From Pseudomonadota bacterium (lineage in GTDB: Bacteria; Myxococcota_A; UBA9042; GCA-2863065), in assembly GCA_005776725.1 (NCBI GenBank), contig SXOO01000280.1, positions 7,425 to 71,424 on the forward strand: a stretch of 64,000 bases of DNA. Direction: 5' to 3'. The translations under genes were made by a program, and so were the position numbers. The notes below the pieces were generated by a model, which did no database searches, had not been told where the DNA came from, and worked only from the letters and a program-made list of their open reading frames with translations. Below are positions 13,701 through 59,370 of this stretch, piece after piece. Every line of letters begins with the position of its first letter. The stretch's first letter is position 1.

Positions 13701-13837
13701 TCGCGAGGCGCTCGGTCGCCCGCTGCGCGACTGGGTCCCTCTTCACTGGCGTGTACGCCGGCACCTCGCCGCAGGAGAAATTGGGGTGGCGCCGTCCGAG
13801 TGACGCATCAGACCCTGTCGAGTTACCCTGCCGGCGC

Positions 13838-33626: not shown

Positions 33627-34547
33627 GTGAAGCACATCCGGTCCTGCCTCGTCCTCTGGCTGATCCTCGGTCCGTTGGCGGCTGCCGCGGCGCCACCAGC
33701 GGAAGGCAACGTCAACCTCGTGAACTTCTCGCCGGCCGGCGGCCGGTACCGCCTGTTCGCGGTCGAGTCCGCGGACGTCGGCCCCGCCTGGCAACCCTAC
33801 GGACACGTCCTGTTCCACGGCGCGCGGGACGTCCTTCAGCTCAGCGCTGGCGACCACACCGAGACGGTGGTCAAGGAGCAATATCTCGCCGACGTGAACG
33901 TTGGCGTGGGGCTCTTCGGCTTCCTGTCGCTAGACCTCACCCTGCCGCTGGGCCTGGCGATGAGCTCCGGCGACGGCGCCACCTCGCTCGCCGGGGTCTC
34001 TGGCGCCGGCCTCGGGGATATGGTCGTCCGCATCAAGGGCACCCCGCTCGCCACCGGGACAGCGGGCTTCGGCGTCGGCTTGGAGCTCGCGGCCACCGTC
34101 CCCACCGGCGACGGCGACCGCTTCCGGGGAGACCCTGGCGCAGGCCTCATCGCGGCGGCGATCCTCGATCACGCGTGGTCGATCGCGCGCCTCTCGCTCA
34201 ACCTCGGCGTCCGGATTCGGTTCGAGGAGAGCTCCTACCTCAGCGCCACGTTCGGGAACGAGCTCACCTTCGGCCTCGGCGTCCTGGTCGAGCTCTTCGA
34301 CCGCCGCCTCGGCCTCGCCTTCGAGCTCCAGGGTCGCACGCCGCTCACCGCGGAGGCCTTCGACAACACCAACACCACAGCCGTCGAGATCATGCTCGGG
34401 CCGCGCTGGTGGATCATCGATTCACTGGCCTTCGAGCTCGGGCTCGGCGCCGGGTTGGTCCAGGGCCTCGGAGCGCCCACGTTCCGCTTCAACACGGGCT
34501 TCGTCTGGGCGCCAGCGGCCCTCGCAGCGCCGACGGGAACACCATGA
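33627..34547 (+). CDS. secreted beta-rich (putative outer-membrane barrel-like) protein, homologous to the penultimate domain of the two downstream giant proteins
   Basis: GTG with SD gaggag. Signal peptide, alternating Gly/hydrophobic pattern, C-terminal ...[11 protein letters not shown]. Colinear with giant1 (about 41091-41930) and giant2 (about 49186-49990), sharing [31 protein letters not shown] and GAGLVQG. Confidence 0.65.
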
Positions 34548-37500
34548 CGAGAGTCCTCTTCACCAGCCTCCTACTGGCCGCGCCCTTCGCGCGCGCCGCG
34601 GAAGATTGCGCGAACGGCATCGATGACGACGCCGCCGGCGGCGCGGACTGCGCGGATCCGGCCTGCGCGGCCGACCCGTTCTGCTCGCCCTGCAACGTCG
34701 ACCTCACGTTCGACACCGGCCAGGGTCCGGTCACCGTGCCCACGGCGGTCTTCACCTGGGCCCAGGCCACCGGCGACGGGCTCATCGCCTCGGGCGGGCT
34801 CGCGGGCCTCACCCCATCGGCGGTGTCCGACGTGTTCACGGTGCCGGTCGCGGTGCCAGCGGCGGGCGAAGCGCCCAGCCCGCGCGTGGAGGTGGTGTTC
34901 TCGCTGAAGAGCAAGGCGTCCGCCGAGGACACGCACCAGGACACCTTCACGGTCTGCGTCGGCGTGCCGTGTACGAAGGACACCCCCAACCCGCTCTACC
35001 GCACGAGCCGCGACACCACTCCAGGCCTGGCCCCTTTCGGCGTGCCCAGCCCGCCATCGTTCAATGACGGTGTTTTCGACCACGTCTTCCTCGACCTCAC
35101 GGCCCACGCTGGGTCCACCGTGACGCTCGCGTTCGCCATCGACGCGCCCGCAGGGGGCTCCGCCGGGCGAAAGGGTCTCCGCGTGTCACGCCTGATCGTC
35201 GGGTCGGACGTTGACGTAGACGGCGCCTTCGAGGGCGTCGCGGGCAGCTGCGACCGCTGCTGGGACGCCGACAAGGACACCTACGTCGACGCCGCGGGCC
35301 CGGCCACCGCGGCCGAGTGCACCGCCCCCGACCTGGACTGCGACGACACCAACGCCGCCGTGAACCCCGCCGCCGCAGAGCAGTGTGGCGTGGTGGGAGA
35401 CGACGACTGCGACGGCGTCGCCGACGCGCTCGACTCGGACTGCGGCGTGGAGGACTGCGCCAACGGGGCAGACGACAACGGCGACGGTCAGGTCGACTGT
35501 GCGGACGTCACCTGCGGGTCGGACGCCGCGTGCGCCCCATGCGGCACTGTCCTCAATCTCAACCGCGGCGGCGCGGCCTTCGTGGCCGCCGACGACAACC
35601 CCGACGCCAACGCCGCGACACGCCTCTTCACCCACGGGCCGAACCCCTCGCTCCCCACCGAGATCGGCTGGTGGACCGCCCGCACGGGCACGGTGAGCAC
35701 ACACTCGGGCGTGAAGCCGGTGCATGCCACGCTCACCCGCAGCTTCGATGTCTCGTCCGGCTCGCTCAGCCCCAGCCTGCGCGTGTCGTACCGCCTCCGC
35801 GGCGAGGCCGCGGCCGGCAAGGACGTGTTCGGCGTGTGCTTCAACACGCCCGCGACGGAGTGTCGGGCCGACGCCCCGGCGAGCGCCCTGGCCTTCTCGA
35901 CGCACGTCGACACCGCAGCCACCGGCACCACGAACATCGACGTGCCCCTGCCGGCGAACAGCGCGGGCAAGACGGTGTCGGTGACGCTGTTCTACGACAC
36001 GGTCGACGGCGCCAATAACGCGAACGCCGGCCTCTTCATCGACGCCGTGAACGTGGCCAGCGACGCCGACGCGGACGGCGCGTCCGAAGACTCGGTCACG
36101 CAAGGGTGCGACCGCTGCGTGGACCAGGACCTGGACACGTTCGGCCGTGAGGGGATCCCCGGCGTCTATGTGTCTGAGTGCGCGTCCAACAAGCGCGACT
36201 GCGCGGACACCATCGCCACGGCCTTCCCGGGAGCTACCGAGCTCTGCGACGGGACCATCGACCACGACTGCGACGGCAAGGCAGACGCGGACGACAGCGA
36301 CTGCACCACCTGCGGAGACGGCGTCGCCAGCGCCTCAGAAGAGTGCGACGACGGCGCCAAGATCTCGGGCGACGGCTGCAGCGCCAGCTGCGAGCTCGAG
36401 GCGAACGCGCTCGTCCTGAGCGAGCTCCACTTCACGAAGCTCTCCCCCACCGCCTTCGGGGAGCAGTTCGTCGAGCTCCAGAGCCGCACCCTCGCCAAGA
36501 TCCACCTCGGCGGGCTCGCCGCGGGCCTGCGTCGCAGCACCGGCCAGGAGCTCCGCTTCGCGGATTGCGCCGCCGCGAGCCTCGTCCTCGCCGGCAACGG
36601 GCGCGTTGTCGTGAGCCTCGGTACCGCGGGGACCTCCGACGGCCTCAACGCGGCGATCCGTTGCGACGAGGACTTTCAGCTCGACCCGACCGGCGACGTA
36701 GTCACCTTGCTATCTGGCGCAGACACGCTCGACACGGCCGACGCGCGCCCCTTCGCGTGCGAGCTGTCCGAGGCCGCCGCCGCGGGGCGCGGGCGGTCGC
36801 TGGAGCGCCTGAACCCGGCCAGCAACCCGAACGACGCGGCGTCTTGGTGCCTCGCGTCCACGGCGACGAGCTACGCCACCTCGGGCAAGCACCACGGCTC
36901 GCCCGGGTCCGCGGGCGCCTGTGCGGAGCGCGCCTGTGACGGCGTGGACGACGACTGCGACGGCGCCACGGACGAGCTCCTTCCCGATACCGACGCGGAT
37001 GGGACCTGTAACGACCGCGACTGCGCGCCGCTGGTACCTTCTTGCGCGCTGGACTGCGCCACGGACGTGGACGGGGACTCCACGCCCGACTGCCGCGACG
37101 GCTGCATCGACTCGGACGGCGATGGCTGGGGCGTGGCCGGAGGCCTCCCGAGCTCCACCTGCAAGACGCTCGCGGGCGTAGCGAAGAGCGACTGCGAAGA
37201 TGATCTGGCGTTCGCCAACCCCGCGGCGTCGGAGGGACCCAGCGCCGCCTCCTGCCTCGATGGCGTGGACGACGACTGCGACGGCACGCCCGACTGCACG
37301 GACCCGAGCTGCGCCGGCACCGCCGCGTGCTCCGGTGAGGCGTGCGGCCTGCCGCTCACCCTCACCTGCGGCCAGGTCCGAGTGATCGAGCCGGAGGGCA
37401 ACGACTTCCCCTGTGGGCCCGGTGCGGACGCGGTACTCCGCTTCGTCGCGCCGCGCACCGAGCTGGTTCGCCTCGACGTGAAGAGCGGCGGCAGCCAGCA

Positions 37501-40500
37501 GTACGCCGGCCGGATCTTCGACGTCGCGTGCTCGAATCAGGCCTGCGCGCCGGGGATCGCAGACGCCGAGTCGTCCTGCCAGGAGCCCGGAACCGCCACC
37601 TTCTCGGCCGTGGCCGCCAAGGCGTACACGATCGTCGTGGACCAGCTGGCCAGCTGCTCCGCGTCGGGCGCCGCGCCGGTCGAGATCAAGCTGACCTGCG
37701 CCGAGCACTGCACCGGCGGGGTCGACGACGACGGCGACCTCTTGGCCGACTGCGCCGACAGCGACTGCGTGAGCCAGGCGGTGTGCGCAGGACAGGACTT
37801 CGACGGCGACGGCATCGCCAATGGTCTCGAGCTCACGTGTGGCGCCAGCCCCACCTCGCCGTTCCAGTCGCCCTCCCCCGCCGACGTTCAGAACCCGGAC
37901 AACGACAGCCAGCTCTCGTGCGTGGACGCGGACGACGACAACGACGCCGCCTCTGACGTCGTGGAGGCCGCTCAGTGCGCCGCCGGTGCCTCCGTGGACG
38001 CCAGCGTGTACCCCGGCGCCCCGCGCCAGTGCGGCAACGCGGGCGTAGACGCGAACTGCAATGGCATCGTCGACTCCGCGGAGGCCGAGTGCGGCGCGGT
38101 CGAGTCGCAGTGCGCCGACGCCAAGGACAACGACAGCGACGGCGCCAAGGACTGCGCCGACCCCGACTGCATCCCCTCGCTCGCCTGCGCCGCCCTGGAC
38201 TTCGACGGTGACCTGATCGCGAACACCATCGAGCTCGCGTGTGGGACCAACCCGCTCGACAAGAACCTGAAGCCCACGGCCACCGGCGCCGCCGATGGGG
38301 ACGGCGACACGGTCCCGAGCTGCGCCGACGCGGACGACGATGGCGACGGCTGGGACGACGTGGTCGAGTTCTCGTGCGCGTCGAACCCCGTGAACGCGTC
38401 CTCGACGCCGGTCGACACGGACGGTGACACCCAGTGTGACGCCGTGGACCCGGACGACGACGCGGACGGCTTCGCGGACCTCATCGAGGTGCAGTGCGGC
38501 TCCAGCCCCACGCTGGCGACCGAGACGCCCATCGACGCGGTCCGTGACCTCGACCTCGACGGCGTTTGCAACGCTCGTGACGTGGACCTCGACGGCGACG
38601 ACTGGACCAACGGCGTCGAGGAGGCCTGCGGCACCGACGTCGCCGACGCCAACGACAACCCTGAGGCCGCCGGTCTCGACGGTGACGACGACGGGCTCTG
38701 CGACGCGCTCGATGGGGACGACGACGGTGACACCTGGTCCGATGAGAAGGAGGAGCTCTGCCAGAGCGATCCGCTCTCCCCGGACTCCGTGCCGGCCGAC
38801 GTCGACGGCGACAGCATCTGTGACGCCTACGACGTGGACGCAGACGACGATGGCTGGCCCGACACGCTCGAGGTGCTGTGCGGCACCAACCCGCTGCTGG
38901 CCGCGAAGAACCCCAGCGCCGAAGGCCAGGACGAAGATGCCGACAAGCTCTGCGACAGCCTCGACGCCGACGACGACGGCGACGGTTGGTCCGACGAGGC
39001 CGAGGCGGTTTGTGAGTCCGACCCGAGAGACCCCAACGCGCTGCCGGCGGACCTGGACGACGACCACGTGTGCGACCTCCGCGACGACGACGACGACGGG
39101 GACGAAGCGATGGATGCCAGCGAGCTGATCTGCGGCACGGATCCGGCGGATGCCACCTCGAAGCCGATCGACACCGACGGAGACGGCGTGTGCGATCCGG
39201 TGGACACCGACGCCGACGAGGACCTGGACGGCTGGAGCAACGGAGACGAGCTGGCGTGCGGAACCGACCCGAAGGTGCCGGCCGACAAGCCGCTGGACAC
39301 GGACGCGGACAAGGTCTGTGACGTGCTCGACGACGACGACGACAACGACGGCTGGAGCGACCTGTCGGAGCTGCTGTGCGGCACCTCCGCCACCAACGGG
39401 GCCGTGGAGCCCGTGGACACCGACGGGGACGCCACGTGCGACGCCATCGACACGGACGACGACGGCGACGGCGCCTCCGACGCAGATGAGGCGCTCTGCC
39501 TCACGGATCCGAAAGACCCCACGGTGCTCCCCTTCGAGCCCGATCTCGCGGACACGGACGGCGACCAGATCGCCGACTGCGTCGATCCCGACGACGACGA
39601 GGACGGCATCCCGGACGTGGTCGAGCTCGGCGATACGAAGCTCGCGGACACCGACACGGACGGCCTGGACGACGGGACGGAGGACGCCAACAAGAACGGC
39701 GTCGTGGACACGGGCGAGACCGACCCCACGAAGGGCGACACCGACGGAGACGGACTGATCGACGGTGAGGAGGTTGCGAGCTGCTACGGCGAGGCCTGCA
39801 CGAAGACCTCCCCGACGTCGCGCGACAGCGACTCGGACGGCCTGTCAGACGCGGAGGAAGACGCCGACAGCGACGGGAGCGTGGGCGAAGGCGAGACGGA
39901 TCCGACCGTGTTGGACACAGACGGCGACACCTCGAGCGACGGGGTCGAGGTCGGCTGCGCGACCGACCCGCTCGACGCGACCAGCTTCCCGGTGGACAAA
40001 GACCAGTCCGGCACCTGCGATGGCGCCGAGGCCGACAGCGACGGCGACGGGATCGCGGATGGCGTGGAGACGCGCTGCAAGACGCTCCCGGGCAGCGCTG
40101 CCAGCGTGCCGCCGCTCACCGAGCTAGACGACAAAGACGGCGACGGTGAGCTCGACTGCTACGACACCGACGACGACGACGACGGCGCGATCGACGCGGC
40201 CGAGGCCCAGTGCGGCACGTCCACGAAGGACGCGGGCGCGGTGCCGTCACCCGCGGATCTCGAGGACACCGATGACGATGGCCAGCTCGACTGCGCCGAC
40301 GACGATGACGACGCGGACGGACTCGACACGAACACAGAAAAGATCTGGGGGACCGACGCGCTCGATGGTGACACGGACGACGACGGGCTCTCTGATGGCG
40401 CAGAGGTCACCATCCACGGCACCGACCCGACAAAGCTCGACACCGATGGCGACGGCGTGGCCGACGGCGTGGAGCTCGGGGTCACCGAGCCCGTCTTCGG

Positions 40501-42760
40501 CACGGCGGACAGCTTCGAGCCCGATCTCGACCCGAGCACCGTGACGCACCCCACGCGCGTCGACACCGACGACGACGGCCTCGCCGACGGCTCCAACGCG
40601 CAGGGCGGGGAGGACATGAACCATAACGGGCGAGTGGACGCGAGCGAGTCGGATCCGAACGACCCGAACGACGGGCTCCGCGACCAGGACGGCGACGGGC
40701 TCATCGATCGCGACGAGCTCACCCTCTGGGACACGAAGGTGGACGATCCGGACTCGGACGACGACCAGCTCGACGACAAGCTCGAGGTCAGCGTGTACGA
40801 GACCAACCCGAACGACCCCGACTCCGACAAGGGGGGCATCGCCGATGGCGCCGAAGTCACGGCCGGTACGGATCCCACCAAGAAGGACGACGACTTCTCG
40901 GCCTCCAAGGTCGTAGGCGACAACGTGTTCGGCTGCGACGCAGGCGGCCCAGGCGCCCTCGGAGGCGCCGGCGGCGTCCTCGCGGCGCTCCTCGCCCTGC
41001 TCTTCGCCCTCGGGCGCCGGAGCTCGCGACCGCTCGTGGGGGGCCTGCTCTTGGCTGGGGCCCTTCTCCCCGGCGAGGCGGGCGCGCAGCGCGTCGGGAA
41101 CGTCAACGTCGAGCAGTACCAGCCCGCGGGCGGGCGCTTCCGCGTGTTCAGTGTGGAGCAGGCGCCTGTCGGGCCGGCTTGGCAGCCCTACGCGCACGTC
41201 CTGTTCCACGGCGAGCGGGAGAGCTTCCAGGTGGCCGACGCCGCCGGGATCCGCACCGAAGTCCTTGTCGACACGACCACCTTCATGGACCTGAACCTGG
41301 GCGTGGGCCTCGCCGGCATCCTGCAAGTAGACCTGGGCCTTCCGGTCGCGCTCGAGATGAGCACCGCTCCCGACGTGACCGCTGTGGAGCCGGTGGGACG
41401 CACAGACGGCGCGGGGCTCGGTGACCTGGTCCTGCGACTCAAGGGCACGGCCATCGACAGCACGGGAGGCGGATATGGGCTCGGCTTCACCCTCGGCGCG
41501 TCCTTCCCCACGGGCGATCCCGATCGCTTCCGCGGCGACGAGGGCGTGGTGGTCCTCCTCAATACGATCAATGAGTTCCGTTCCACCTGGGCGGTGCTCT
41601 CGCTCAACCTGGGCGGCCGGTTCCGCACGGCGCCAGTCGAGTTCCTCGGGCGCGACTACGGCAACGAGCTCTCATACGGTCTCGGCCTGGACGTGGCGGC
41701 CTGGATCGGCCACGTCAACCTGGGCCTCGAGCTCTTCGGGCGCACCCCGCTCACGGCGCCATTCGACGGTGTGGAGAACACCGGACTCGAGGCGCTGCTC
41801 GGCGTGAAGTGGTGGATCGTCTCGGGCCTGTCGCTCGAGATCGCAGGCTCCATGGGCCTTGTGCAAGGCGTGGGCACGCCCGACTTCCGGTTCGTCACGG
41901 GGCTCGCCTGGGCTCCTCGCGAGGCCGACACCGACGGTGACCTCATCGACGACGTGGACGACGCGTGCCCGCTCGAGGCCGAGGACAAGGACGGCTACGC
42001 CGACCTCGACGGCTGCCCAGAGGCGGACAACGACGGCGACGGCGTGGCCGACGCGAACGACAAGTGTCCCTACCAGCCGGAGGACAGGAACGGCAGCCTG
42101 GACGACGACGGCTGCCCGGACGGAGACGACGACGGAGACGGCAAGCTCAACATCGTGGACCGCTGCCCGAAAGGTGCCGAGGATCCGGACAACTTCCAAG
42201 ACGGCGACGGCTGCCCGGATCCAGACAACGACGGAGACGGGATAGACGACGTGAAGGACAAGTGCGCCTTGGTCGCCGGCGGGGCCACGGACACGAACCA
42301 CGATGGCTGTCCCGACGCGATCGAGCTCGAGATCGCCACTCAGACCCCCGAGGAGGCCGCTGATCCCTGTCAGTTCGAGATCGCCGAGCGGGTCCCCTTC
42401 GACCGGCTGTCCACGACGCTCGACTCCGAGGCCCGGGCGGTGGTTCGTTCAATGGGCGATCGCCTCCTCGCGCGCCTCACGGACAGCAAGTTGCCGCCGA
42501 TCGAAGAGGTGAGTGTCAACGGGCATACACGGGCCGAGGGCGCCGACGCGGAGACGCTCGCGCTCTCGCGGCGACGCGCCCAGTCGGTGCGGGACGCGCT
42601 GGTGGAGCGCGGCTCGGTTCCGAGGTCCATCACACCGGCGCGCGGCTACGGCGAGACCGAGCCGCTCTCTGAAGAAGCGTCGTCTCGGCGCGTGGAGATC
42701 AAGGTGAGGATCGGCGGCCGCTGTGCGGATGTCGGGGCGAAGACGGAGGGCGGCCGATGA
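34544..42760 (+). CDS. giant (2738 aa) acidic Ca-binding surface/OmpA-anchor fusion protein: SP, MopE-like motifs, lamin-tail domain, about 40 TSP3-like repeats, internal MYXO-CTERM-like + internal SP-like segment, barrel-like domain, TSP3 repeats, OmpA C-terminal domain
   Basis: ATGA overlap with 33627-34547. N-terminus [32 protein letters not shown] ([25 protein letters not shown]). TSP3-like repeats of the form DTDGDxxCDxxDxDDDGDGW plus CGTDP. OmpA motif [24 protein letters not shown]...SRRVEIKV. Confidence 0.8.
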
Positions 42761-45700
42761 AGTCCCACCACCTGCTACTCGCGCTCCTCGCGCTGGCCCC
42801 CCGCGCCTACGCGGCCGAAGACTGCGCCAACGGGATCGAGGACGACACCGGCGGCGCCGACTGCGCCGATCCCGCTTGCGCGGCTGACCCGTTCTGCACC
42901 GACCTCTGCGGCACGTCGCTCACCTTCGCCACCGGCCGGCACACGGCTGAGCTGCTCACGGGCTTCGTGCACGCCAGCGGCGGCCTCGAGGCCCAAGGCA
43001 CCGGCGCCCTCAAGGTGGACCTGGTGGTGCCGCTCGAGCGCCCCGAGGCCAGACTCGAGCTGGTCCTCCGCAAGGAGGGCGCCGATCCGCTCCACGTCTG
43101 CCTCGACCTCGCGTGCACGCAGCCCCTGCTCACGGTGAACGGCGCCTCGGGGTCCATCACCCACACAGCCGGCGGGTTCTACGACGGCACCTTCGATCAC
43201 GTCTTCGTGGACCTCACGAGCAAGCGCGGGTCCACGCTGGCGGTCTTTGTGGTGGTGCCAACGGTCGCCACGGGGAATCCGCTCACGCGGCTCGAGGCGC
43301 TGCGGCTCTCGTCCGACGTGGACCGCGACGGCTTCTTCGACGGCGCCGCGGCGAGCTGCGACCGCTGTTGGGACGTAGACAACGACGGCGCCGCGCGCGC
43401 CGATAGCCCTGGCCTCTGCGGCGTTGCGGACTGCGACGACACGACCAGCGCCCGAGCTCCGGGCCTGACCGAGCTCTGCAGCGGGGGGATCGACGAGGAC
43501 TGTGACCTCCTGGTCGACGGTCTAGACGTCGGGAGCTGCGGTATCGAAGACTGCGCCAACGGGGCGGACGACAACGGCGACGGCAGCATCGACTGCGCTG
43601 ACCAGACGTGCGCCAGCGACCCCGCCTGCAGCCCGTGCCTGCCGAAGCTCACGTTCGCAACGGGGACCAACGGCGCCGTCGCCAGCGACAACGATCCCGA
43701 CGGTAATACGCAGACCCAGGTCTTCCGCCAGGGCGCCAGCGCGGCTCACGCGGGGGCGATCGGCTTCTCGACCGCGCTCACGGGCACGGTCTCTAGCCAC
43801 GGCGGCGGCCGGATCACTGCGGCGATCGCGCGCACCTTCCCTGTGCCATCCGGCCTCCCGGCACCGACCCTGCGCCTGCGGTATGCGCTCGATGGGGACG
43901 CGCAGGCGGGCAAGGACGTCGTCCTCGTGTGCTTCGACGTCAAAGCCTCGAACTGCACCACGTCCGTCACCGGCGCCGCTACGTGGACCTCTGACGTGAA
44001 CACCGGAGTGGGGATCGTGACCGTGGAGGTGCCCCTCCCCACGTCGGCCATCGGCGCGGTGAACGTGGTCGTGGCCTACGACACGGTCGACGGCGGCGGA
44101 AACGGCAACCGCGGGCTCTTCGTCGATGAGCTCAGCGTCGGGAGCGACCTCGACGGCGATGGGCTCGGCGAGGACCCGGCCATCGTGGGATGTGACCTCT
44201 GCGTCGACGCCGACGACGACGGCTACGCGCCCGCCTCGGTCGCCGCGGTCTTCGCCAGCGGATGCACCTCGGTCGCCGCCGACTGCGACGACGACTCGGT
44301 CGTCGCTAATCCCGGCGCCACGGAGCTCTGCGATCTGGTCGGCGATCAGGACTGCGACGGGCTGGCAGACGCCGAGGAGCCGAGCTGCTCCTCTTGCGGC
44401 AACGGCGCCGTCACCGCTGGCGAGACCTGCGACGACGGCGGGATTGCCCCCGGCGACGGCTGCTCGGCCACCTGCCGCCTCGAGACCGGCGCCCTGGTGG
44501 TGACGGAGCTGCACCTCACGCGGTTCGACCCCACGGCCCTCGGCGAGCAGTGGCTCGAGCTCTACAACGCCACGTCGGCCCCCATCGACCTCGCGGCATC
44601 CGGGATCACCCTCGGGCTGGACGTCTCTGTGCCGCTGCGCGACTGCACCGTGCTCACCACCTCTGTCGTGGCGCCCGGCGGCCGGCACGTGGTGGCCCTG
44701 GGGCCGCAGAACACCCTCGACGGCCTCGACGCGGATCTCGCGTGCGGCTCCGGCACGCTGGGCGGCCTCGTCGCGGTCTCGGCCGAGAACGACTCGCTCG
44801 ACACCGTTGACCTCGCGGCCCTCGGCTGCGAGCTGGCGGGCGCCACGAAGCCCGGCGTTGGGCGCTCGCTCATCACCGCGGCCACGGTCCACACGGGCAA
44901 CGACGCGGCCTCGGCGTGGTGCCTGGCGTCCACCGCCAGCTCGTACGCGAACTCCGGCCGTCACCACGGCTCACCCGGGTCCGGCGGGGGATGCGGCGAG
45001 GTGGTCTGCGACGGCATCGACGACGACTGCGACGGAACGATAGACCAGGGCTTCCCTGACGCGGACACCGACGGGACCTGCGACGCGCGGGACTGCGCGC
45101 CCCTGGTGAAGAGCTGCACCAATGATTGTACGACCGACGTGGACCTCGACAGCACCCCGGACTGCCGGGACGGCTGCATCGACGGCGACGGCGACGGTTG
45201 GGGCACGCCCGGCGGCCTCTTGCCCGCGACGTGCAAGACCCAGGGCGGGACGCCGCGCACGGACTGCGACGACACGCTCACCATCGTGAGCCCAGAGGCC
45301 ACCGAGGGCGGCGCGTCCTGCACCAACGGCCTGGACGACGACTGCGACGGCAAGGCGGACTGCTCGGACAGCGCGTGCGGCCTCACCGCGGCGTGCGCGG
45401 GCGAGAGCTGCGCCGCGCCCACCCCTCTCGCGTGCGGCGCCACGGTGGTGGTGGAGCCCGAGTCCAACGACGCCACCTGCAGCCCGGGCGTGGACTCGGT
45501 CTTCGTCTTCAACAGCACCTTCGACGGGAACGTGATCCTCGAGGTCCAGAACCTCGGGCGCCTCCAGTACAACGCGTTCCTCCACAAGACGAGCTGCAAC
45601 GCGGCGTGCCCGGCCGGGATCGCGCCCATCGGGAGCACCTGCGCGGCGGCCGGGAGCGGCACGGTCCCCGTCACGCCGGGCACCCCACTGTTCATCACGC

Positions 45701-48700
45701 TCGACAACGTGTCGGCCTGCGCGGGTAGCGGCTCGGGCGCGGCGCGCCTCACGCTGCGGTGCTCGGAGGCCTGCTCCGGCGGCGTGGACGACGACGCGGA
45801 CGGCAAGACCGACTGCGCGGACGACGACTGCGTCGCCTCGGTCAGCTGCGCGAACGTGGACTTCGACGGCGACGGGCGGGCGAACGGCGTCGAGCTCATC
45901 TGCGGGCGGGATCCCGTGAACCCGGGCTCCGTACCGTCGGCCGACGACGTGGCAGAGGCCGACACCGACACGCTCCTCAACTGCGTGGACAACGACGACG
46001 ACAACGACGGCCACTCCGACAGCACCGAGGCCTCCCAGTGCCAGCTGAGCGCGGGCGCCAAGAACGACTCGGACGTCTATCCCGGCGCGCCGCTGCAGTG
46101 CGCCATCGCCGCGGTCGACGCCGACTGCGACGGCTTCTTCGACAGCGAGTCGGCCGAGTGCGGCTTCATCGAGCAGCAATGCGGCGACAACCTCGACAAC
46201 GACGGCGACCAGAAGGCGGACTGCCAGGACCTCGACTGCGTTCTCCTGCCCATCTGCGGCCTAGCCGACTTCGACTCGGACGGCGCCTCGAACCGCACCG
46301 AGCAGCAGTGCAACACGAAGCCGACTCAGGCCTCCTCCGTGCCGAGCGACGCCGCGGCGTCGGATCAGGACAACGACACCCTCGCTGCCTGCATCGACAC
46401 CGATGACGACGGGGACCAATCCGACGACACCGAAGAGCTGCTGTGCGGCTCGGATCCGGCCGACGCGACGTCGACGCCCCCGGACCTGGACAACGACGGG
46501 CAGTGCGACGCGTTCGACGACGATGACGACGCCGACGGCTTCCCGGATCTCGTTGAGGTGGACTGCGGCAGCGACCCGGAAGACGCTGGGAGCCGCCCGG
46601 ATCAGCCGGCCTACGATCTGGACGACGACGACATCTGCGACGCGCGCGACGCCGACCGAGACGGCGACGACTGGACGGACGCGGAGGAGAACACCTGCGG
46701 GACCAGCCTCGCCAATGCCTCCGAGAGCCCGAGCAGCGCGGGCCTCGACGTGGACGACGATCACCTCTGCGACGCGGTGGACGAGGACGACGACGGTGAT
46801 GACTGGTCAGACGCCGAAGAGCTGCTCTGCGAGACCAACCGGCAGGACGCGGCAGACTCCCCGGCCGACACCGATGACGACGGCATCTGCGACCTCATCG
46901 ACTCGGACCCCGACGGCGATCTCTGGCCGGACGTCCTCGAGACCCAGTGCGGCACGTCTGCGTTGATCCCCGCCGACAACCCGACGGCCCTCGGCGCCGA
47001 CGTGGATGGAGACATCCTCTGCGACAAGCTCGACTCGGACGACGACGGCGACGGGTGGAGCGACGTCCTCGAGGTCCAGTGCGGGACCTCGCCGGCGCTC
47101 AAGGCGTCGGCGCCCACGGACACGGACGGCGACAAGACCTGCGATCCGAGCGATGACGACGACGACGGCGACGTGTCGCTGGACGCCACCGAGGCGCTGT
47201 GCGGCACGGACCCTCTGTCGGCCGAGTCCACCCCTGTCGACACGGACAACGACGGCCTCTGCGACGCGCGCGACCCGGACGCGGACCCCGATGGCGACGG
47301 CTGGTCCAGCTACAAGGAAGAGGCGTGTGGCACCAAGCCCCACGATGACAGCTCCACCCCCACGGACGCGGATGCGGACGGCGTGTGTGACGCGCTCACC
47401 GTGGACGACGACGGCGATGGCTGGCCCGACGCGGTGGAGGTGAGCTGCGGCACGGCGCCCGAGCTCGCGTCGAGCACGCCGGTCGACACCGACAAGGACG
47501 GCCAGTGTAACGGGGTCGATACCGACGACGACGCGGACGCCGCCCCGGACACCGCCGAGCTCACCTGCGGGACCGATCCGCTGGACGCGAAGAACCACCC
47601 CACCACGCTGGACCTCGTCGACGCGGACGGCGACGACGCGCCCGGCTGCGTGGACGAAGACGACGACAACGACGGGCTCCCCGATGTGGCCGAGGCCCTC
47701 CAGGGCTCCAACCCGCTGGTCACCGACAGCGACGGCGACGGCCTCACGGATGGCGAAGAAGACAGCGACCTCGACGGGACGCGCGACCCGAACGAGACCT
47801 CGCCGGTGCTCCCAGACACCGACGGCGACGGGCTATCGGACCGGGTCGAGACCCTGAGCTGCTATCTCGGCGACGGCGCGGCCACCGCATGCCAGGAGTC
47901 GAGCCCCACGAAGCCGGACTCCGACGAAGACGGTGTCCCCGATGGCCTCGAGGACAAGAACGGCGACGGGAAGACCGACGACTCCGAGACGAACCCCCTG
48001 AAGCTCGACACCGACGCGGACGGCCACAGCGATGGGTACGAGCTCGGCTGCGCGACCGATCCGCTCGCAGCGGAGAGCGTCCCGGTCGACAAAGACGCCT
48101 CGGACGTGTGTGACGGCGCCGAGGTCGACAGCGACGCGGACGGGATCGCCGATGGCGTCGAGCTGCTCTGCGGGACGAAGCCGCTGGACAAGAAGTCGGT
48201 GCCAGAGCTCGGCACGCTGGTCGACACCGATGGTGACGGCGACCTCGACTGCAGCGACGAAGACGACGACGACGACGGCACCCCCGATGTCTTCGAGCTG
48301 GCGTGCGGCACGGGCCCGCTCGACGCCGCCGCCAAGCCCCCCGAGGGCGCCACCGCCGACACCGACGGCGACGGCACGCTCGACTGCGCCGACTCGGACG
48401 ACGACGGCGACGGCCTGTCGGACACGGGCGAGCAGACGCTGGGGACCGACGCGCTCGACGCCGACAGCGACGACGACGGCCTCCTCGACGGCTACGAAGC
48501 AGGCATCACCGGGACCTCGCCGAACGCGGCGGACAGCGACGGCGACGGCGTGCAAGACGGCACCGAGCTGGGCGTGACCGAGTCCGGGCCGTTCACCGGG
48601 CCGAGCTTCCAGGTGGACGCCGATCCCGCCACCACCACCGACCCGCGCTCCGACGACACGGACAACGACGGCCTTACCGATGGCCTCGAGGACGCGAACG

Positions 48701-50823
48701 CGAACGGCAAGGTCGACGCGGGTGAGTCCGATCCGAACGTGGCCGCAGACGGGAAGAAGGACACCGACGGCGACGGCCTGGCGGACGTCGTTGAAGAGTC
48801 GCTGTGCGAAGAGGGCGTTTGCCTCGATCCCACGAACCCCGACACCGATGGAGACGGCGTGAACGACAAGCTCGAGAAGGACGTCCACGGGACCTCGCCG
48901 TTCGCGGCCGACACCGACGGCGGCGGCGTGAACGACGGGTTCGAGCTCTCGAACGGCACCGATCCGAAGGACGCCGTCGACGACTTCAGCAAGGCCACCG
49001 TCACCGGAAACAACGTCTTCCGCTGCGATGGCGGCCCGGGCTCCCCCGGGGGCGCGGGCGTGTTCCTGCTGGTGCTCCTCGGGCTCCTGGTGAGCCGTCA
49101 CGCGCGGCGCGGCGCCCTGCTCGCTCTGGTGGGCCTGCTCGGGCTCGCCTCGAGCCTGCCTGGGACCGCGAACGCGCAGACCGCCGGCAATATGAACATC
49201 GAGAACTTCTACCCGGCGGGCGGTCGCTACCGTGTCTTCTCGGTGGAGCAGTCCGTGGTGACCCCGGCGTGGCAGCCGTTCGGCCACCTGCGCTTCCATG
49301 GGGAGCTCGACACGCTCCGCGTGCAGACCGGCAGTGCCGAGCAGGTCCTGGTGGAGATGCAGACGGTGGCTGACCTCGGCATCGGGCTCGGGCTCGGCGA
49401 CTGGGCGCAGCTCGAGGTGGCCCTGCCGTTCATCGCGTCGGTGTCGTCCGGCGATGACGTGAGCGCCATCGCGCCGATCGAGGGCGCCGGGCTCGGGGAC
49501 CTGGTCGTGCGAGTCCGCGGCACCTTCCTCCCGAACCGGGTGGGCGGCGTCGGTGTGGGCATGTCGGTTGGGGCGACGATCCCCACCGGCGACGGCACGC
49601 GCTTCCGCGGTGATCCGGGGGTCGGGGTCCTCGCCAACTTCCTGCTCGACCACCGGAGCGAGCGCGTGGACGTGGCCCTCAACGTGGGCGTTCGTATCCG
49701 CACCGAGGAGGCCGAGTTCCTGGGCCGGACCTTCGGCAACGAGCTCACGTACGGCGTGGGAGTGGACGTCAGCCTCCTGCGGCGGCGCATCGACATGGGC
49801 GTGGAGCTGTTCGGGCGCACCCCGCTCGAGGAGCCGTTCGGGGACGCGGACCACACCACGCTCGAGCTGCTGGGCGGCCCGAAGTGGTGGATGTGGCAGG
49901 GCCTTGGCCTCGAAGCGCACGTCGGCGCCGGGCTCGTCCAAGGCTACGGCGCACCGAGCTTCCGCTTCGGTCTCGGGCTCTCCTGGGCCCCCGCCCACGA
50001 GGACGCGGACGGCGACGGTGTGAGCGACGACACCGACGCCTGTCAGTTCACGGCCGAGGACAAAGACGGCTGGGCTGACGACGACGGCTGCCCAGATCTG
50101 GACGACGACAACGACAACTTCGCGGACAAGGACGACCGCTGCCCGCGCGAGCCCGAGGACCGCAACGGCATCGACGACGGCGACGGCTGCCCGGACGGCG
50201 ACGTCGACGGCGACCGTATCGCCGACGCGATCGACCTGTGCCCGTACGACCGCGAGGACGTGGATCTGTTCGAGGACCGCGATGGCTGCCCCGAGCTCGA
50301 CAACGACCATGACGGGATCCTCGACACCGCGGACGCCTGCACCGAACAGGCCGAGACCATCAACGGCTTCAAGGACCGAGACGGCTGCCCGGACGAAGCG
50401 CCTCCCATCGTGAAGCGGAACGTGGTGCAGTGCCGCCTCCAGCTCGCCCGGATCGGCTTCGATCAGGCGAAGGACGTGCTGCGGCCAGACTCCCAGGCCA
50501 AGCTGAACCGCGTGGCCGAGGCGATCGCGAGCTACGTGTCGAACGGCGACCCCCCGCTGCTGCACGTCTACGTGTCGGGCCACGCCTCGGAAGAGGGTAC
50601 GGACGTGAACAACTACGACCTCTCGCTGCGGCGCGCACTGCAGGTGTACGACTTCCTCCTCGACCGGGGGATCTCGGCGTCGCTCCTGGCGCGACGGGGC
50701 TTCGGCGAGGCGAAGCCGCTCCTCGACGAAGAGGGTGACCCCGCGCTCCGCGACAATCGCCGCGTCGAGTTCGACGTGGAGCTCGGCGGGCCCTGCGCCG
50801 GCGCGGCCGTCTCCACCGACTGA
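42757..50823 (+). CDS. giant (2688 aa) paralog with the same architecture
   Basis: ATGA overlap. Colinear with 34544-42760. OmpA motif [24 protein letters not shown]...NRRVEFDVE. Confidence 0.8.
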
Positions 50824-51000: not shown

Positions 51001-51882
51001 ATGCGCGTGCTCACGATCGACTTCGAGTGCTGGCCCCAGATGGTGTACGGCGAGCTGACGGGCCAGGACCGGGCGGTCGGGCGCGACGGGCTGGAGCGGG
51101 CCACCGATACGCTCCTCGCGCTCACCGAGCGCCACGGCGTGCGAGCCACGGTGTTCGTGCTCGGGGTCACGGCGCGGGCGTTTCCGGACTTGGTCCGGAG
51201 AATCCACGCAGCAGGCCACGAGCTCGGCGCCCACGGTGAGACCCACGAGCGCCTGGACCGTCTCACGCCGGCGCGCCGCCAGGCGTCGATGCGCGCTGTG
51301 AAGGCGCGTCTCGAGGACCTCGTGGGCGCCCCGGTCCGCGGCTTCAGGGCGCCTTACTTCTCGATCGTGCGGAGCAACCTCGACGCGCTCGAGGAGCTGG
51401 CGGACGCCGGTTTCGCCTACGACAGCTCAATCGTACCCATCGTGCATCGACGCTACGGCGTTCCCGGCTGGCCTCGCGGTCCCGAGCGCGTCGCCGGCGG
51501 GAGGCTCGTGGAGCTTCCGCTGGCCACGGTCGCAGTGGGCGCAGGGAACCTCCCCGTCGCGGGCGGGGGGTACTGGCGCGCCTTGCCCGACTCGTGGGTG
51601 GTGCGGGGCCTCGAGGCTGCGAATGACCAGCCTGCCGTGGTCTATCTGCACCCGTATCAGCTGGACCCGCAGCCGCCCGAGGCGGTCCCGGGGCCGCTCG
51701 GTCCGCTGAACCGCCTCCGGGCCGGTGCGTTCCGCCTGGCTCAGCGACTCGGGCGGTCGGGGAACCCTGCCCTGCTCGACCGGGTCCTGCAGACCGGGCA
51801 GTGGACCACAGCCGGGGAGCTCGTGGACGCGTTCTTGACGGCCGCTCCCCCATCCGCCACACCCGGTGCGCAATGGAGATGA
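51001..51882 (+). CDS. polysaccharide deacetylase family protein (NodB-like, DUF3473-type as found in exosortase/EPS loci)
   Basis: MRVLTIDFECW...HGVRATVFVLG...GHELGAHGETHE...GFRAPYFSI. Confidence 0.75.
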   Translation: MRVLTIDFECWPQMVYGELTGQDRAVGRDGLERATDTLLALTERHGVRATVFVLGVTARAFPDLVRRIHAAGHELGAHGETHERLDRLTPARRQASMRAVKARLEDLVGAPVRGFRAPYFSIVRSNLDALEELADAGFAYDSSIVPIVHRRYGVPGWPRGPERVAGGRLVELPLATVAVGAGNLPVAGGGYWRALPDSWVVRGLEAANDQPAVVYLHPYQLDPQPPEAVPGPLGPLNRLRAGAFRLAQRLGRSGNPALLDRVLQTGQWTTAGELVDAFLTAAPPSATPGAQWR

Positions 51883-53645
51883 GTGGGAAGCGAGTGGTGC
51901 TGGGCTCCTGCGTGGGCGGCGGCCCGATGGAGCGGCTCGCGCGGCGGCTCGAGGAGCGCGGGATCGCGGCTCAGGTGGTGAGCCTCGACAGCCCGGAGTC
52001 GTGGCGCGCTCGAATGGGCACGCCGCGGGGGCGCCTCCTGGCGCGCGTCCGAGCCTTCGTGGGTACGCCCGTGGCCGCGGTACGGGCGGCGTTCGAGCGC
52101 GACGACCAGGTCCTGGTGCCCACCACCAACCCCTTCTTCCTGCCGGCCGTGCTGGTGGCGACCCGACCGCTCCACGGCCGTGCGGTGGTGCCGCTGATCT
52201 ACGATCTCTACCCGGACGCGCTCGAGGCTGGCGGCGTGGAGACCGGCCCCCTGGCCCGCGCGGCGGAGGCGCTGAACCGCTTCGTCTTCCGCAACGCAGA
52301 CGGCGTGGTGTTCATCGGCGAGAAGATGGCCGAGCACGCCCGGGCGCGTTACGGGGCACCGCGGCGCGACGCGGTCTTCGAGACGGGCGTCGACACGGCG
52401 GAGCTCAGGGCACCCAAGCGCGTCGAGTCGCCCCTCGAGACCTGGCTGGACGAGGCGCCGGACGCGCTCGTGCTCAGCTACGTGGGCAACCTCGGCCTCG
52501 TCCACGACGTGGACACGCTGGCCGGCGTTTTGAGCGGGATTGGGCGCTTCGGCGGACGGCTTCGCGTGGTCATCGCGGCCACCGGTCCGGGCCTCCCCGC
52601 GCTGGTCGCGGCCGCCGCGGACTCGCCCCACATCCGGCTCGAGCCTCCCCTCGACGACGCGGCGTGGGCGCGGCTGCTGGCGCGCTCGCACCTCAGCGTG
52701 GCCACGCTCAAGCCCGCCGCGTTTCGGACCTCGATCCCGTCGAAAGCCCTGTCTGCGATGGGCGCCGGGAGCGCGGTCCTGGCGCTCGCGCCGCTCGACT
52801 CCGATCTCGGGGCGTTGGTCGAGCGCCACGCGGCGGGCAAGGTCTTCGCCCCGGGTGACTCCGAGGCCGTGCTGGCGTGGCTGGCCGCGCTATCGAAGGA
52901 CGAGCTCGCCACGCTCCGAACGAACGCGCGACGCGCCGCGGAGGAGCACTACGACCTGGCCGTGCTCGCCGCGCGGTGGGAGCGCTTCCTCGGCGTCTGC
53001 GCGGAGCGGCGCGACGCCGACCCGGTCTACGACGCGCTCAAGCGGGCACTGGACGTGCTCGTCGCGGGCACGGCCACCCTCGCTCTGGCGCCGATCCTGG
53101 CGGCCACGGCCGCGGCGGTGGCCGTGAACCTCGGCCGGCCGGTGGTCTTCGAGCAAAGACGCCCGGGTCGAGGCGGTCGCGTGTTCCTCATTCGGAAGTT
53201 CCGCACGATGCGAGAGCCGCGCCCTCACGAGCTCGGCCCCGAGTTCGACGCCGCGCGGCTGACCCCTGTGGGCCGCGCGCTGCGAGCGGCCAGCCTCGAC
53301 GAGCTTCCCACGCTGCTGACCGTGCTCGCCGGGCACATGAGCCTCGTCGGTCCACGCCCGCTGTTGGAGCGGTACCTCCCCCGCTATACCCCGCGGCAGG
53401 CCAGGCGCCACGAGGTCCCACCCGGGGTCACCGGGTGGGCTCAGGCCAACGGCCGGAACGCCACCACCTGGGACGAGCGCTTCGAGCAAGACATCTTCTA
53501 CGTCGAGAACCGCTCCTTGTGGCTCGACCTCCGCGTGCTCGCCCGCACGGTACGCACGGTGCTCCGGCGCGACGGGATCAGCCAGTCCGGGCACGCCACC
53601 ATGCCCGAGTTCCTCGGGCCCGAGTCCCAGGGGGCAGCCGCATGA
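51873..53645 (+). CDS. bifunctional GT4-like glycosyltransferase fused to a C-terminal PglC-like (Bac_transf) phosphoglycosyltransferase domain
   Basis: ATG at 51873 overlaps the upstream stop. The C-terminal domain has KRALDVLVAG...RPVVFEQRRPGRGGRVFLIRKFRTM...SLDELPTLLTVLAGHMSLVGPRP...PGVTGWAQANGR. Confidence 0.7.
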   Translation: MEMSGKRVVLGSCVGGGPMERLARRLEERGIAAQVVSLDSPESWRARMGTPRGRLLARVRAFVGTPVAAVRAAFERDDQVLVPTTNPFFLPAVLVATRPLHGRAVVPLIYDLYPDALEAGGVETGPLARAAEALNRFVFRNADGVVFIGEKMAEHARARYGAPRRDAVFETGVDTAELRAPKRVESPLETWLDEAPDALVLSYVGNLGLVHDVDTLAGVLSGIGRFGGRLRVVIAATGPGLPALVAAAADSPHIRLEPPLDDAAWARLLARSHLSVATLKPAAFRTSIPSKALSAMGAGSAVLALAPLDSDLGALVERHAAGKVFAPGDSEAVLAWLAALSKDELATLRTNARRAAEEHYDLAVLAARWERFLGVCAERRDADPVYDALKRALDVLVAGTATLALAPILAATAAAVAVNLGRPVVFEQRRPGRGGRVFLIRKFRTMREPRPHELGPEFDAARLTPVGRALRAASLDELPTLLTVLAGHMSLVGPRPLLERYLPRYTPRQARRHEVPPGVTGWAQANGRNATTWDERFEQDIFYVENRSLWLDLRVLARTVRTVLRRDGISQSGHATMPEFLGPESQGAAA

Positions 53646-55978: not shown

Positions 55979-56685
55979 TGGACGTCGTCATCCTGGCAGG
56001 CGGTAAGGGCTCACGCCTCGCCGAGCTCACCGTCGAGACCCCGAAGGGCCTGGCGCCGATCGGGGATCGCCCAATCCTCTCCCACATCATGGGGCTGTTC
56101 TCCCGCCGGGGGCACCGCCGCTTCATTCTGTGCGTCGGCTACCAGGGCGCCAAGATCGCCGAGTGGTACGCCGCCCACGCAGAGCCCGGCTGGACGGTAA
56201 TCACGAGCGATCTCGGGGTGGACGCCACGAAGAGCGCACGCGTGGCGGCCGCGCTGGAGCACGTGCAGTCCGACCGGTTCTGGCTCTCTTACGGCGACGA
56301 CCTGTCGGATGTGGACCTGGACGCGGTGGACGCGCAGGCGCGCGCCACCAACTCGGTCGTCACGCTCACCGCCATTCAACCGGCGTCTCCGTTCGGCGTC
56401 ATGGACCTGGCCGCGTCGGGTGACGTGACCGGCTTCCGCGAGAAGTGCCGGATGACCGACTGGATCAACGGCGGCTTCATGTCCGTGTCTCGCGACCTCG
56501 CCCGCTGGCTGCCGCGCGGTGAGCTGGAGCAGGAGGTCTTCCTCGCCCTCGTCGCGGAGCGGCGCATCAACGCCTACAAGCACCACGGCTTCTGGAAGGC
56601 GATGAACACCCACAAAGACTACCTGGAGCTGCGCGAGCTCGCGGGCTCGGGCGAGCTGCTGCGGCAGCTGGGCGCCACGCCCTGA
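55975..56685 (+). CDS. rfbF: glucose-1-phosphate cytidylyltransferase-like sugar nucleotidyltransferase
   Basis: SD aaggagg. MMDVVILAGGKGSRLAELTVETPKGLAPIGDRPIL...ILCVGYQG. Confidence 0.7.
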   Translation: MMDVVILAGGKGSRLAELTVETPKGLAPIGDRPILSHIMGLFSRRGHRRFILCVGYQGAKIAEWYAAHAEPGWTVITSDLGVDATKSARVAAALEHVQSDRFWLSYGDDLSDVDLDAVDAQARATNSVVTLTAIQPASPFGVMDLAASGDVTGFREKCRMTDWINGGFMSVSRDLARWLPRGELEQEVFLALVAERRINAYKHHGFWKAMNTHKDYLELRELAGSGELLRQLGATP

Positions 56686-56847
56686 CGGCTCCCTCCTGAC
56701 AGCTTCTGGCAGGAGGCCGTCCAGGTTTCGGCCCCTGGCCCTTGCGCCCACCCTCGTAGCGAGCTTGACTGCGCGCATCACAAAGTCCCCCGGTCCGAGA
56801 GGCCGGTCCAGAGCCCGACGCTCGTCGCGCATCCAAGGAGCTCCACT

Positions 56848-57219
56848 ATGTCCGATACCAGCGCCATCGCCGCTCAGCTCGTCGCCCTCTGCCGCCAGGG
56901 GCAGAACCTCACGGCCATCGAAACGCTGTACGCGCCCAACATCGTCTCCGTCGAGGCCATGGACATGGCGGGGATGCCGCGGGTGATGGAGGGCGTCGAG
57001 GCCATCAAGGGCAAGAACATCTGGTGGAGCGAGAACCACACGATCCACGCTGCCAACGTCGATGGCCCCTTCGGCCACGCGCCCGACCGGTTCGCCGTGC
57101 TGTTCGACTACGACATCACCAACAAGCTGTCCGGTGAGCGCCAGCAGATGAAGGAGGTCGGCCTCTTCACGGTGAAGGCCGGGAAGATCGTCCGCGAGGA
57201 GTTCTTCTACGGGCCGTGA
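56848..57219 (+). CDS. NTF2-like / SnoaL-like small protein
   Basis: SD aaggag. Size and the conserved W/Y/F pattern fit the nuclear-transport-factor-2 fold. Confidence 0.5.
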   Translation: MSDTSAIAAQLVALCRQGQNLTAIETLYAPNIVSVEAMDMAGMPRVMEGVEAIKGKNIWWSENHTIHAANVDGPFGHAPDRFAVLFDYDITNKLSGERQQMKEVGLFTVKAGKIVREEFFYGP

Positions 57220-57468
57220 TCTCAGTCAGCGCACGGCGGCGCGGTGCGCGTCGCCGCGCCAGACGTGAGGGGCGAGCAGACGCTTGGCTCGACCTCGGCG
57301 GGTGCCTTGAGATAGACTCCCGCCGCCCGTTCCGCCGCCCCAAAAGCTGTGTGGACGGGCGAGATCACAGCCGGGTCCGCTCCAGCATGGTCGGTCGCCG
57401 GCGTGGTCGCTTCAGGCGACCACATGCCATGCGGTGCGTGCCCGCACCGTCGACTCAGGGAGCGGACG

Positions 57469-59361: not shown

Positions 59362-59370
59362 GGCCCGCCA

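Follow-up and report, generated by a model that had tools for sequence, protein, structure and literature searches.

In-frame fusion of a MYXO-CTERM-like surface protein and a TraB-like outer-membrane module in two tandem genes of a myxococcotal contig: a candidate envelope polyprotein

Can a single bacterial open reading frame (ORF) encode two exported envelope proteins, joined through the sorting tag of the first and the signal peptide of the second? This question is raised by a 64,000-nt stretch of contig SXOO01000280.1 (assembly GCA_005776725.1, a bacterium of the lineage Myxococcota_A), in the following called the window, which contains a giant gene, termed fused gene 1. A reading made from the letters of the window alone (the sequence-only reading) had proposed that in the product of this gene a MYXO-CTERM-like sorting tag is followed directly by an internal Sec signal peptide and a barrel- and OmpA-containing module, and that cleavage at both signals would release two proteins from one translation product. 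Here we examine the reading frame, the two segments, the modules on either side of them and the related loci in other genomes. Coordinates refer to the window, and all genes and features lie on the plus strand unless stated otherwise.

The plus-strand ORF 34175..42760 has no stop codon anywhere in its translation; fused gene 1 likely starts within it at ATG 34544, which gives a protein of 2738 aa (34544..42760). The protein begins with an N-terminal Sec signal peptide (34544..34597), as read from the sequence, with its cut before AEDC, as in a paralogue. It continues with a passenger of ~2110 aa (34598..40933; NCBIfam and Pfam matches) that ends in DDF...GDNVFG before a Cys. There follow the internal MYXO-CTERM-like tag (40934..41029), made up of Cys2131, a Gly-rich spacer, a helix to G2157 and the Arg cluster RRSSR (2158-2162), and the internal signal-peptide-like segment (41015..41086), whose n-region RRSSR is shared with the tag and whose c-region PGEAGA leads to a predicted cut after A2181 (AGA/Q, the slash marking the cut). 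The C-terminal part, in the following the C-module, consists of a TraB-like outer-membrane beta-barrel (41087..41923; NF033763, Pfam Phenol_MetA_deg, AlphaFold2 and Foldseek), a periplasmic linker of Ca-binding thrombospondin type 3 (TSP3) repeats (41924..42346; Pfam TSP_3, invariant D/C/G columns and Foldseek) and an OmpA-like peptidoglycan-binding domain (42347..42757; PF00691 with E=7e-12, AlphaFold2 and Foldseek).

The translation of the junction at nt 40922-41110, including NVFGC(2131), is identical to the letters quoted in the sequence-only reading. The G+C content at third codon positions (GC3) in the frame of gene 1 is 89% inside the junction, 89% on either side of it and 90.5% over the whole gene (overall span 89-92%). 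The proposed continuity of the frame across the junction is thus borne out by an ORF without a stop codon and by a GC3 that stays steady in one frame. Two minus-strand shadow ORFs (40159..41106 and 40247..41326) were rejected, as strong homology, GC3 and fold favour the plus frame. We further searched the six-frame ORFs of the window, 86,513 residues in total, with a strict hairpin pattern (Cys, hydrophobic run, net-positive loop, hydrophobic run, small-x-small) and obtained only two matches, one in gene 1 and one at the same place in its neighbour, fused gene 2. The hairpin is therefore no chance by-product of a composition rich in Ala, Gly, Leu and Arg.

Fused gene 2 (42757..50823, 2688 aa) is a tandem paralogue with the same architecture, whose ATG overlaps the stop codon of gene 1. 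Its internal hairpin (49024..49176, with the predicted cut before Q) is matched by the strict pattern and by the signal-peptide profile described below (E=2e-15), and it scores 18.9 bits on the MYXO-CTERM model TIGR03901. Between the two proteins, identity reaches 51% for the passenger, 52% for the hairpin and 48% for the C-module; with a divergence of about 50% the duplication must be old, and frame and features have been kept in both copies. The in-frame junction is also found in the database relatives P0001, P0004, P0005, P0008, P0041 and P0099, the best database relatives being Myxococcota metagenome-assembled genomes (MAGs) with 47-50% identity. The tandem pair is preceded by a barrel-only paralogue (33627..34547, ~306 aa from GTG 33627, identified by translation and a Pfam Phenol_MetA_deg match), an arrangement that this analysis adds to what was known of such genes. 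This paralogue has its own N-terminal signal peptide and a barrel, without the TSP3 or OmpA part, and its alignment with the fused proteins sets in at the signal peptide; its barrel is 47.5% identical to that of fused gene 1. It opens a unit of three genes joined by ATGA overlaps, the first between its own stop codon and ATG 34544 and the second between the stop codon of gene 1 and ATG 42757. A stand-alone barrel gene thus heads the unit although both fused genes carry barrels of their own.

The first of the two junction segments had been assigned to the MYXO-CTERM class by its likeness to the end of the first gene in the window (31..2130), and this gene indeed ends in such a signal, reading ...GCGTTRQAGGRWPVAALLAFALLALARRR up to its stop codon and scoring 19.2 bits on TIGR03901. 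All three parts of the MYXO-CTERM signature are present in gene 1, namely C2131 in a Gly-rich motif, a hydrophobic helix and an Arg cluster. The tag is not C-terminal, however: 576 residues follow the Arg cluster, and the chain has its own N-terminal signal peptide. When 29 internal segments of the family, each trimmed behind its Arg cluster, were run individually against MYXO-CTERM models, 22 of them matched TIGR03901 at E<=0.01 (best 2e-6) and 12 of the 29 matched TIGR03382, the second MYXO-CTERM model; the Cys of the tag is invariant in 29/29 aligned members. By the 22/29 matches, the class assignment holds at the family level, but not for the segment of gene 1 taken by itself, which scores 10.2 bits (E=0.74) against a curated TIGR03901 cut-off of 20 bits and is a divergent member whose score is low because of its long Gly-rich spacer. 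The internal segments of gene 2 and P0004 reach 18.9 and 21.2 bits, respectively.

The second segment lies 2162 residues into the chain of gene 1, and its identification as a Sec signal peptide with an AxA site is upheld by column-for-column homology to N-terminal signal peptides of stand-alone relatives. In the MAFFT alignment A1 it shares columns with the N-terminal signal peptides of P0002, P0003, P0006 and the barrel-only paralogue 33627..34547. We also built a profile on the N-termini of 59 stand-alone homologues, taking each from its Met through the signal peptide to mature residue 60. It matches residues 2162-2238 of gene 1 (E=3e-15, starting at profile position 7) and residues 2117-2195 of gene 2 (E=2e-15, starting at profile position 5). 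Profile positions 5-7 correspond to the basic n-region, and the consensus AsA-Q sits over AGA-Q in gene 1 and over ANA-Q in gene 2. By rule as well as by homology, both segments have the layout of a Sec signal peptide, with RRSSR, a 13-residue h-region and PGEAGA/Q in gene 1, and RHARR, a 13-residue h-region and SSLPGTANA/Q in gene 2. Judging from the sequence, the Arg cluster has a double role: it forms the n-region of the signal peptide and also the putative end of the tag on the cytoplasmic side. This analysis adds explicit evidence that what has been retained is the signal peptide of the downstream partner.

The 557 residues past the predicted cleavage site match the TraB model NF033763 with E=7e-35 and 120-124 bits over profile positions 75-371 of 522. 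This score is far below the curated cut-off of the model (700 bits), and the C-module is therefore a TraB homologue, neither TraB itself nor its orthologue. Pfam matches to Phenol_MetA_deg, TSP_3 and OmpA cover the module. With 80 homologues as input, AlphaFold2 gave a model whose mean predicted local distance difference test score (pLDDT) is 83.7 and which shows a barrel mostly above 90, the TSP3 linker and an alpha/beta OmpA domain at model residues 500-632. Searching the model with Foldseek, we found that the barrel is most similar to FapF (5o65, 5o67, 5o68) and to the COG4313 channel 4rl8, with E-values of 1e-9 to 7e-11, template modelling (TM) scores of 0.6-0.72 normalised to the target and sequence identities of 11-16%. 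The TSP3 and OmpA part resembles the periplasmic portion of a Capnocytophaga OmpA (5wtl, E=1e-14), and the OmpA domain the C-domains of OprF, OmpA and Pal. The predicted architecture of the C-module, i.e. barrel, TSP3 repeats and OmpA domain, is TraB-like. The earlier description of this part as a separately exportable barrel and OmpA module is in line with the Pfam and NCBIfam matches, the modelled fold and the Foldseek matches.

The passenger, searched with NCBIfam and Pfam, contains acidic double-disulfide repeats, MopE-like and DUF4215 Cys-rich motifs and many TSP3 or CglD-like Ca-binding repeats. Going by these matches it is a putative adhesin-like extracellular region, Cys-rich and Ca-binding. 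Neither PA14 nor TIGR04201 has a match in the passenger in NCBIfam or Pfam, and it is therefore not TraA. Directly before the Cys of the tag we noticed a motif DDF ... G(D/N)N(V)F(G/R)C (window 40880..40933 and 48970..49023), which is common to fused proteins and to the upstream genes of split pairs (L001, L003, L014, L063, L002 and L040; L numbers denote the related loci surveyed below). Docking of the passenger on the barrel may take place through this motif.

To see how widespread the arrangement is, we surveyed the best 80 species-level loci within Myxococcota, taking one genome per species. The fused state with the same hairpin is found in 22 of the 80 loci, among them cultured organisms (Corallococcus coralloides with a complete genome, and Pyxidicoccus, Vitiosangium and Hyalangium isolates) as well as MAGs of Kofleriaceae, Haliangiales, Polyangiales, Sandaracinaceae and Bradymonadia. 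All 29 parsed members show the same order of elements: Cys, short spacer, hydrophobic run, Arg-rich loop, second hydrophobic run, AxA-type site and conserved barrel start; their median helix length is 18, and their median loop has 5 aa and a net charge of +4. Passengers vary among the fused relatives, being TSP3-rich, myxo_disulf_rpt-rich (P0099) or Ig-like (in the Kofleriaceae/Haliangiales group), while the cassette of tag, signal peptide, barrel, TSP3 repeats and OmpA domain is constant. Six loci that could have passed for fused ones because of a long upstream ORF (L007, L013, L015, L018, L032 and L057) were rejected as GC-rich read-through without the Cys/helix/Arg signature, two of them, L015 and L032, being split pairs; the pattern matches in L028 and L074 were false positives.

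The sequence-only reading had also suggested a comparison with orthologues in which the two halves are separate genes, and adjacent split pairs were indeed found in 9 of the 55 assessable non-fused loci, i.e. those with sufficient upstream DNA (L002, L015, L016, L027, L032, L040, L054, L069 and L079). In these pairs the signal-peptide codons of the barrel gene are overlapped, or closely preceded, by the end of a MYXO-CTERM gene. They include L002, of all stand-alone relatives the one closest to the window module; its upstream gene ends in ...DDFLGGRLTGAGTPSC...LLRRRANKGSEL before the stop codon and carries the DDF...C motif of the window genes. The passenger family found fused in L036, L047, L050, L056 and L071 occurs in its split form in L032, and the split pair L040 (Myxococcus sp. 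Y35) has a tag nearly identical to that of the fused locus L063. We considered L040 as an orthologue of the fused loci L014 and L063 and rejected this, because its neighbour is FecR and not FtsZ; L040 is instead a paralogous locus, though a closely related one. The traA and traB genes of M. xanthus overlap by 4 bases (PMC3325183). With gene pairs that are adjacent or overlap, as in the case of traA and traB, a single indel suffices to switch between the fused and the split state, and both states persist. This analysis adds the finding that the fused state is common (22/80) and interconverts with the split state.

How do these genes relate to known systems? The nearest published case is MXAN_5598 of M. 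xanthus (Wall laboratory, mBio 2025), for which the authors describe a large adhesin-like N region, an internal MYXO-CTERM and a barrel with OmpA, and propose a fusion of two genes, a combined TraA- and TraB-like architecture and an N part that is processed and surface-anchored (PMC11980579). The same article states that MrtX cleaves MYXO-CTERM and terms internal sorting tags rare (PMC11980579), and MXAN_5598 has been detected in outer-membrane vesicle proteomes (PMC4158809). The novelty that the sequence-only reading saw in this architecture was consequently overstated, as both the origin by fusion and the processing of the N part had already been proposed for MXAN_5598 (PMC11980579). Gene 1 is of the MXAN_5598 type, with an adhesin-like N part, an internal MYXO-CTERM, a barrel and an OmpA domain in one ORF, and the loci L014 (Corallococcus) and L063 (Pyxidicoccus) have the same hairpin of Cys, helix, Arg cluster, signal peptide and AxA site. 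In these two loci the fused gene lies inside a cell-division cluster, with ftsA and ftsZ on either side (L014 2888..11629, L063 1127..11647), the position also given for MXAN_5598 (PMC11980579), and they are therefore its orthologues. The window genes, in contrast, stand beside genes for a phosphofructokinase (PFK), a major facilitator superfamily (MFS) protein and polysaccharide functions, and because of these neighbours they are not orthologues of MXAN_5598. They also differ from the MXAN_5598 type in being tandem-duplicated and preceded by a barrel-only gene, and their barrel module is ~32% identical to that of L014. A retained internal signal peptide is not mentioned for MXAN_5598 in the available part of the article (PMC11980579), and compared with the rarity stated there, internal tags occur here in 22/80 related loci.

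The pairing of a MYXO-CTERM surface protein with a protein made of signal peptide, barrel, TSP3 repeats and OmpA domain is likewise found in TraA/TraB, the outer-membrane exchange system of M. xanthus, where two overlapping genes take the place of the one ORF seen here; the likeness of the window genes to this system is one of architecture and homology alone. TraB has a signal peptide, an outer-membrane barrel, TSP3 repeats and an OmpA domain, TraA and TraB form 1:1 complexes, and both reach the outer membrane independently of each other (PMC12045341). Since TraA and TraB act 1:1, a polyprotein would fix that ratio. TraA, a kin-recognition receptor, contains a PA14-like variable domain, TIGR04201 Cys-rich repeats and a MYXO-CTERM, whereas the passenger here has acidic double-disulfide, MopE, DUF4215 and TSP3 motifs instead.

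In type V secretion, an N-terminal passenger and a C-terminal barrel are either combined in one chain (autotransporters) or encoded by separate genes (two-partner secretion). Autotransporters carry neither a sorting tag nor a signal peptide between passenger and barrel, and their passenger is translocated across the outer membrane through, or together with, the barrel of the same protein. The window proteins differ from them in their FapF/COG4313-like barrel, in the two sorting signals between passenger and barrel and in a tag of the myxosortase/type II secretion kind; the autotransporter beta-domain PF03797 has no Pfam match in fused gene 1. FapF and COG4313 (Pput2725), the best structural matches, are 12-stranded barrels without a TSP3/OmpA extension or a fused passenger; the barrel of the window proteins would likewise be of the 12-strand type. 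In the envelope polyproteins of flaviviruses and hepaciviruses, alternating stop-transfer and signal segments form hairpins, and host signal peptidase frees the products; these are eukaryotic endoplasmic reticulum systems, unrelated in sequence to the window proteins. A literature search for a bacterial polyprotein with an internal signal peptide gave nothing relevant, only a virology review, and Haft's myxosortase preprint has no mention of TraB, internal tags or fusions.

Taken together, the explanation we consider probable is that the window holds a TraA/TraB-like operon pair in two tandem copies, each fused into one frame, and that the polyprotein is cut into an adhesin and an anchor. The N-terminal signal peptide would direct the passenger to export by Sec, the tag helix would stop the transfer with the Arg cluster staying cytoplasmic, and the next hydrophobic segment would re-enter the translocon in N-in/C-out orientation and restart translocation, so that a helical hairpin made of the two segments would sit in the inner membrane, its short loop positively charged. 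A cut by signal peptidase I after A2181 (AGA) would free the TraB-like module, which would pass to the barrel assembly machinery (BAM), the outer membrane and the peptidoglycan. Cys2131 would be lipidated, myxosortase (MrtX) would remove the hairpin, and the passenger would reach the cell surface by the type II secretion route established for other MYXO-CTERM proteins (PMC11980579). The outcome would be a surface adhesin and an outer-membrane/cell-wall anchor in an obligatory 1:1 ratio. What the analysis shows is the continuous frame, the conserved hairpin, the homology of each of its segments to the respective sorting signal, the fold of the C-module and the coexistence of split and fused relatives; this topology, both cleavages, the lipidation, the surface routing and an association of the two products are inferred.

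Several observations weigh against this explanation. Myxosortase (MrtX) would have to accept a tag that is tethered C-terminally to a second membrane segment. The TIGR03901 score of the gene 1 tag lies under the cut-off, as given above. The hairpin is modelled by AlphaFold2 as two helices with a low pLDDT of 44-62, the tag helix covering model residues 40-55 (protein residues 2142-2157), and a scan of the 20 larger ORFs of the window revealed neither a myxosortase nor a type II secretion gene. As the gene 31..2130 carries a terminal MYXO-CTERM, we assume that mrtX and type II secretion genes are present elsewhere in the genome.

The alternative that survives best, with a small but real chance of being correct, is partial processing, in which only signal peptidase I cuts, so that the passenger, tethered to the inner membrane by the hairpin, would act in the periplasm and the TraB-like module would go to the outer membrane, or conversely only myxosortase cuts. 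It draws on the weak tag of gene 1 and on the tethering just mentioned. The Cys/helix/Arg signature, however, is kept in 29/29 fused members, with model matches in 22/29, which would be hard to understand for an unused tag; in being adhesin-like, Cys-rich and Ca-binding, the passengers resemble surface proteins, and sorting tags are stated to work internally in the MXAN_5598 article (PMC11980579).

It is distinctly unlikely that the C-module is made (or made additionally) from an in-frame GTG within the junction, partly as a gene within a gene. GTG 41036 in gene 1 has a GGAG 13 nt upstream, and GTG 49090 in gene 2 would yield a signal peptide of good form, MSRHARRG...; initiation at GTG 41036, on the other hand, would leave the signal peptide of gene 1 without a positive n-region, GTG is a common Val codon at 71% GC, and the in-frame GTGs are not consistently placed. 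As there is no stop codon, ribosomes translating the passenger would read through and make the fused chain anyway.

Even less can be said for a chain that is not processed at all and remains a permanent inner-membrane hairpin within a single 290-kDa envelope-spanning protein with its barrel in the outer membrane. Such a topology is formally possible, and AlphaFold2 models both segments as helices, but we regard it as very doubtful: the second segment is signal-peptide-like rather than transmembrane-like, with a 12-residue h-region, a Pro/Gly-containing c-region and AxA/Q, it is homologous to the cleaved signal peptides of 59 stand-alone relatives, and split relatives show the halves working as separate polypeptides. 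Finally, the idea of an artefact, i.e. of two genes joined by a missed stop codon, a frameshift or an assembly error, is effectively refuted and has next to no probability left, for although neighbouring or overlapping pairs of MYXO-CTERM and barrel genes do exist and one indel would fuse them, a diverged tandem paralogue keeps the identical in-frame junction, the junction recurs in 22 independent genomes, one of them complete and some from cultured isolates, and the same fusion is published for MXAN_5598 (PMC11980579); the missed stop against which the sequence-only reading had advised resequencing can thus be excluded as an explanation.

Other genes of the window deserve brief mention. The MYXO-CTERM gene 31..2130, truncated at the window start, carries tandem 'DVTEPQ' hexapeptide repeats before its tag. 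A CotH-family kinase homologue (4033..5604) and a gene for an FGE-sulfatase, i.e. a formylglycine-generating enzyme-like protein (12732..13700), are also present. A 1901-aa ORF (13397..19102) combines Dictyostelium-type CTDC Cys-rich repeats with an ALK/LTK-like glycine-rich domain, an odd pairing for a bacterium. The 690-aa protein encoded at 25978..28050 has three DsbA/thioredoxin-like stretches and, on account of these, is plausibly relevant to the oxidative folding of the Cys-rich exported proteins encoded nearby. Directly downstream of the giant genes, a polysaccharide set (51801..62522) encodes a fused GT4/Bac_transf protein, a Polysacc_synt_3 flippase-like protein and a 1033-aa Wzy_C/O-antigen-ligase-like protein; it also holds a HYDIN/ASH Ig-like protein.

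For annotation, our results mean that such ORFs should not be 'corrected' into two genes, nor be labelled merely as OmpA-family or MYXO-CTERM proteins. They also offer a comparative and experimental system for the pairing of MYXO-CTERM proteins with TraB-like barrels, for the action of myxosortase on internal tags and for that of signal peptidase I on internal signal peptides. A far-reaching extension, which we put forward as improbable, is that the arrangement represents a portable and self-contained surface-display cassette of Myxococcota, in which the barrel, once cut free, would dock its own lipidated passenger at the outer membrane or even act as the translocon for it; this would be a processed 'split autotransporter' with a 1:1 stoichiometry set by translation, and the first envelope polyprotein of bacteria whose maturation depends on signal peptidase I, acting at an internal signal peptide, together with an intramembrane sortase-like protease. 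With 22 of 80 loci across several orders, diverse passengers and split counterparts, the arrangement is a recurrent module and not a single curiosity of M. xanthus. If both cleavages occur, its products would constitute a natural bacterial envelope polyprotein, threaded through the membrane as a hairpin, matured by two membrane proteases and yielding its two products in a fixed 1:1 ratio, a logic that is familiar from viruses and hardly documented in bacteria.

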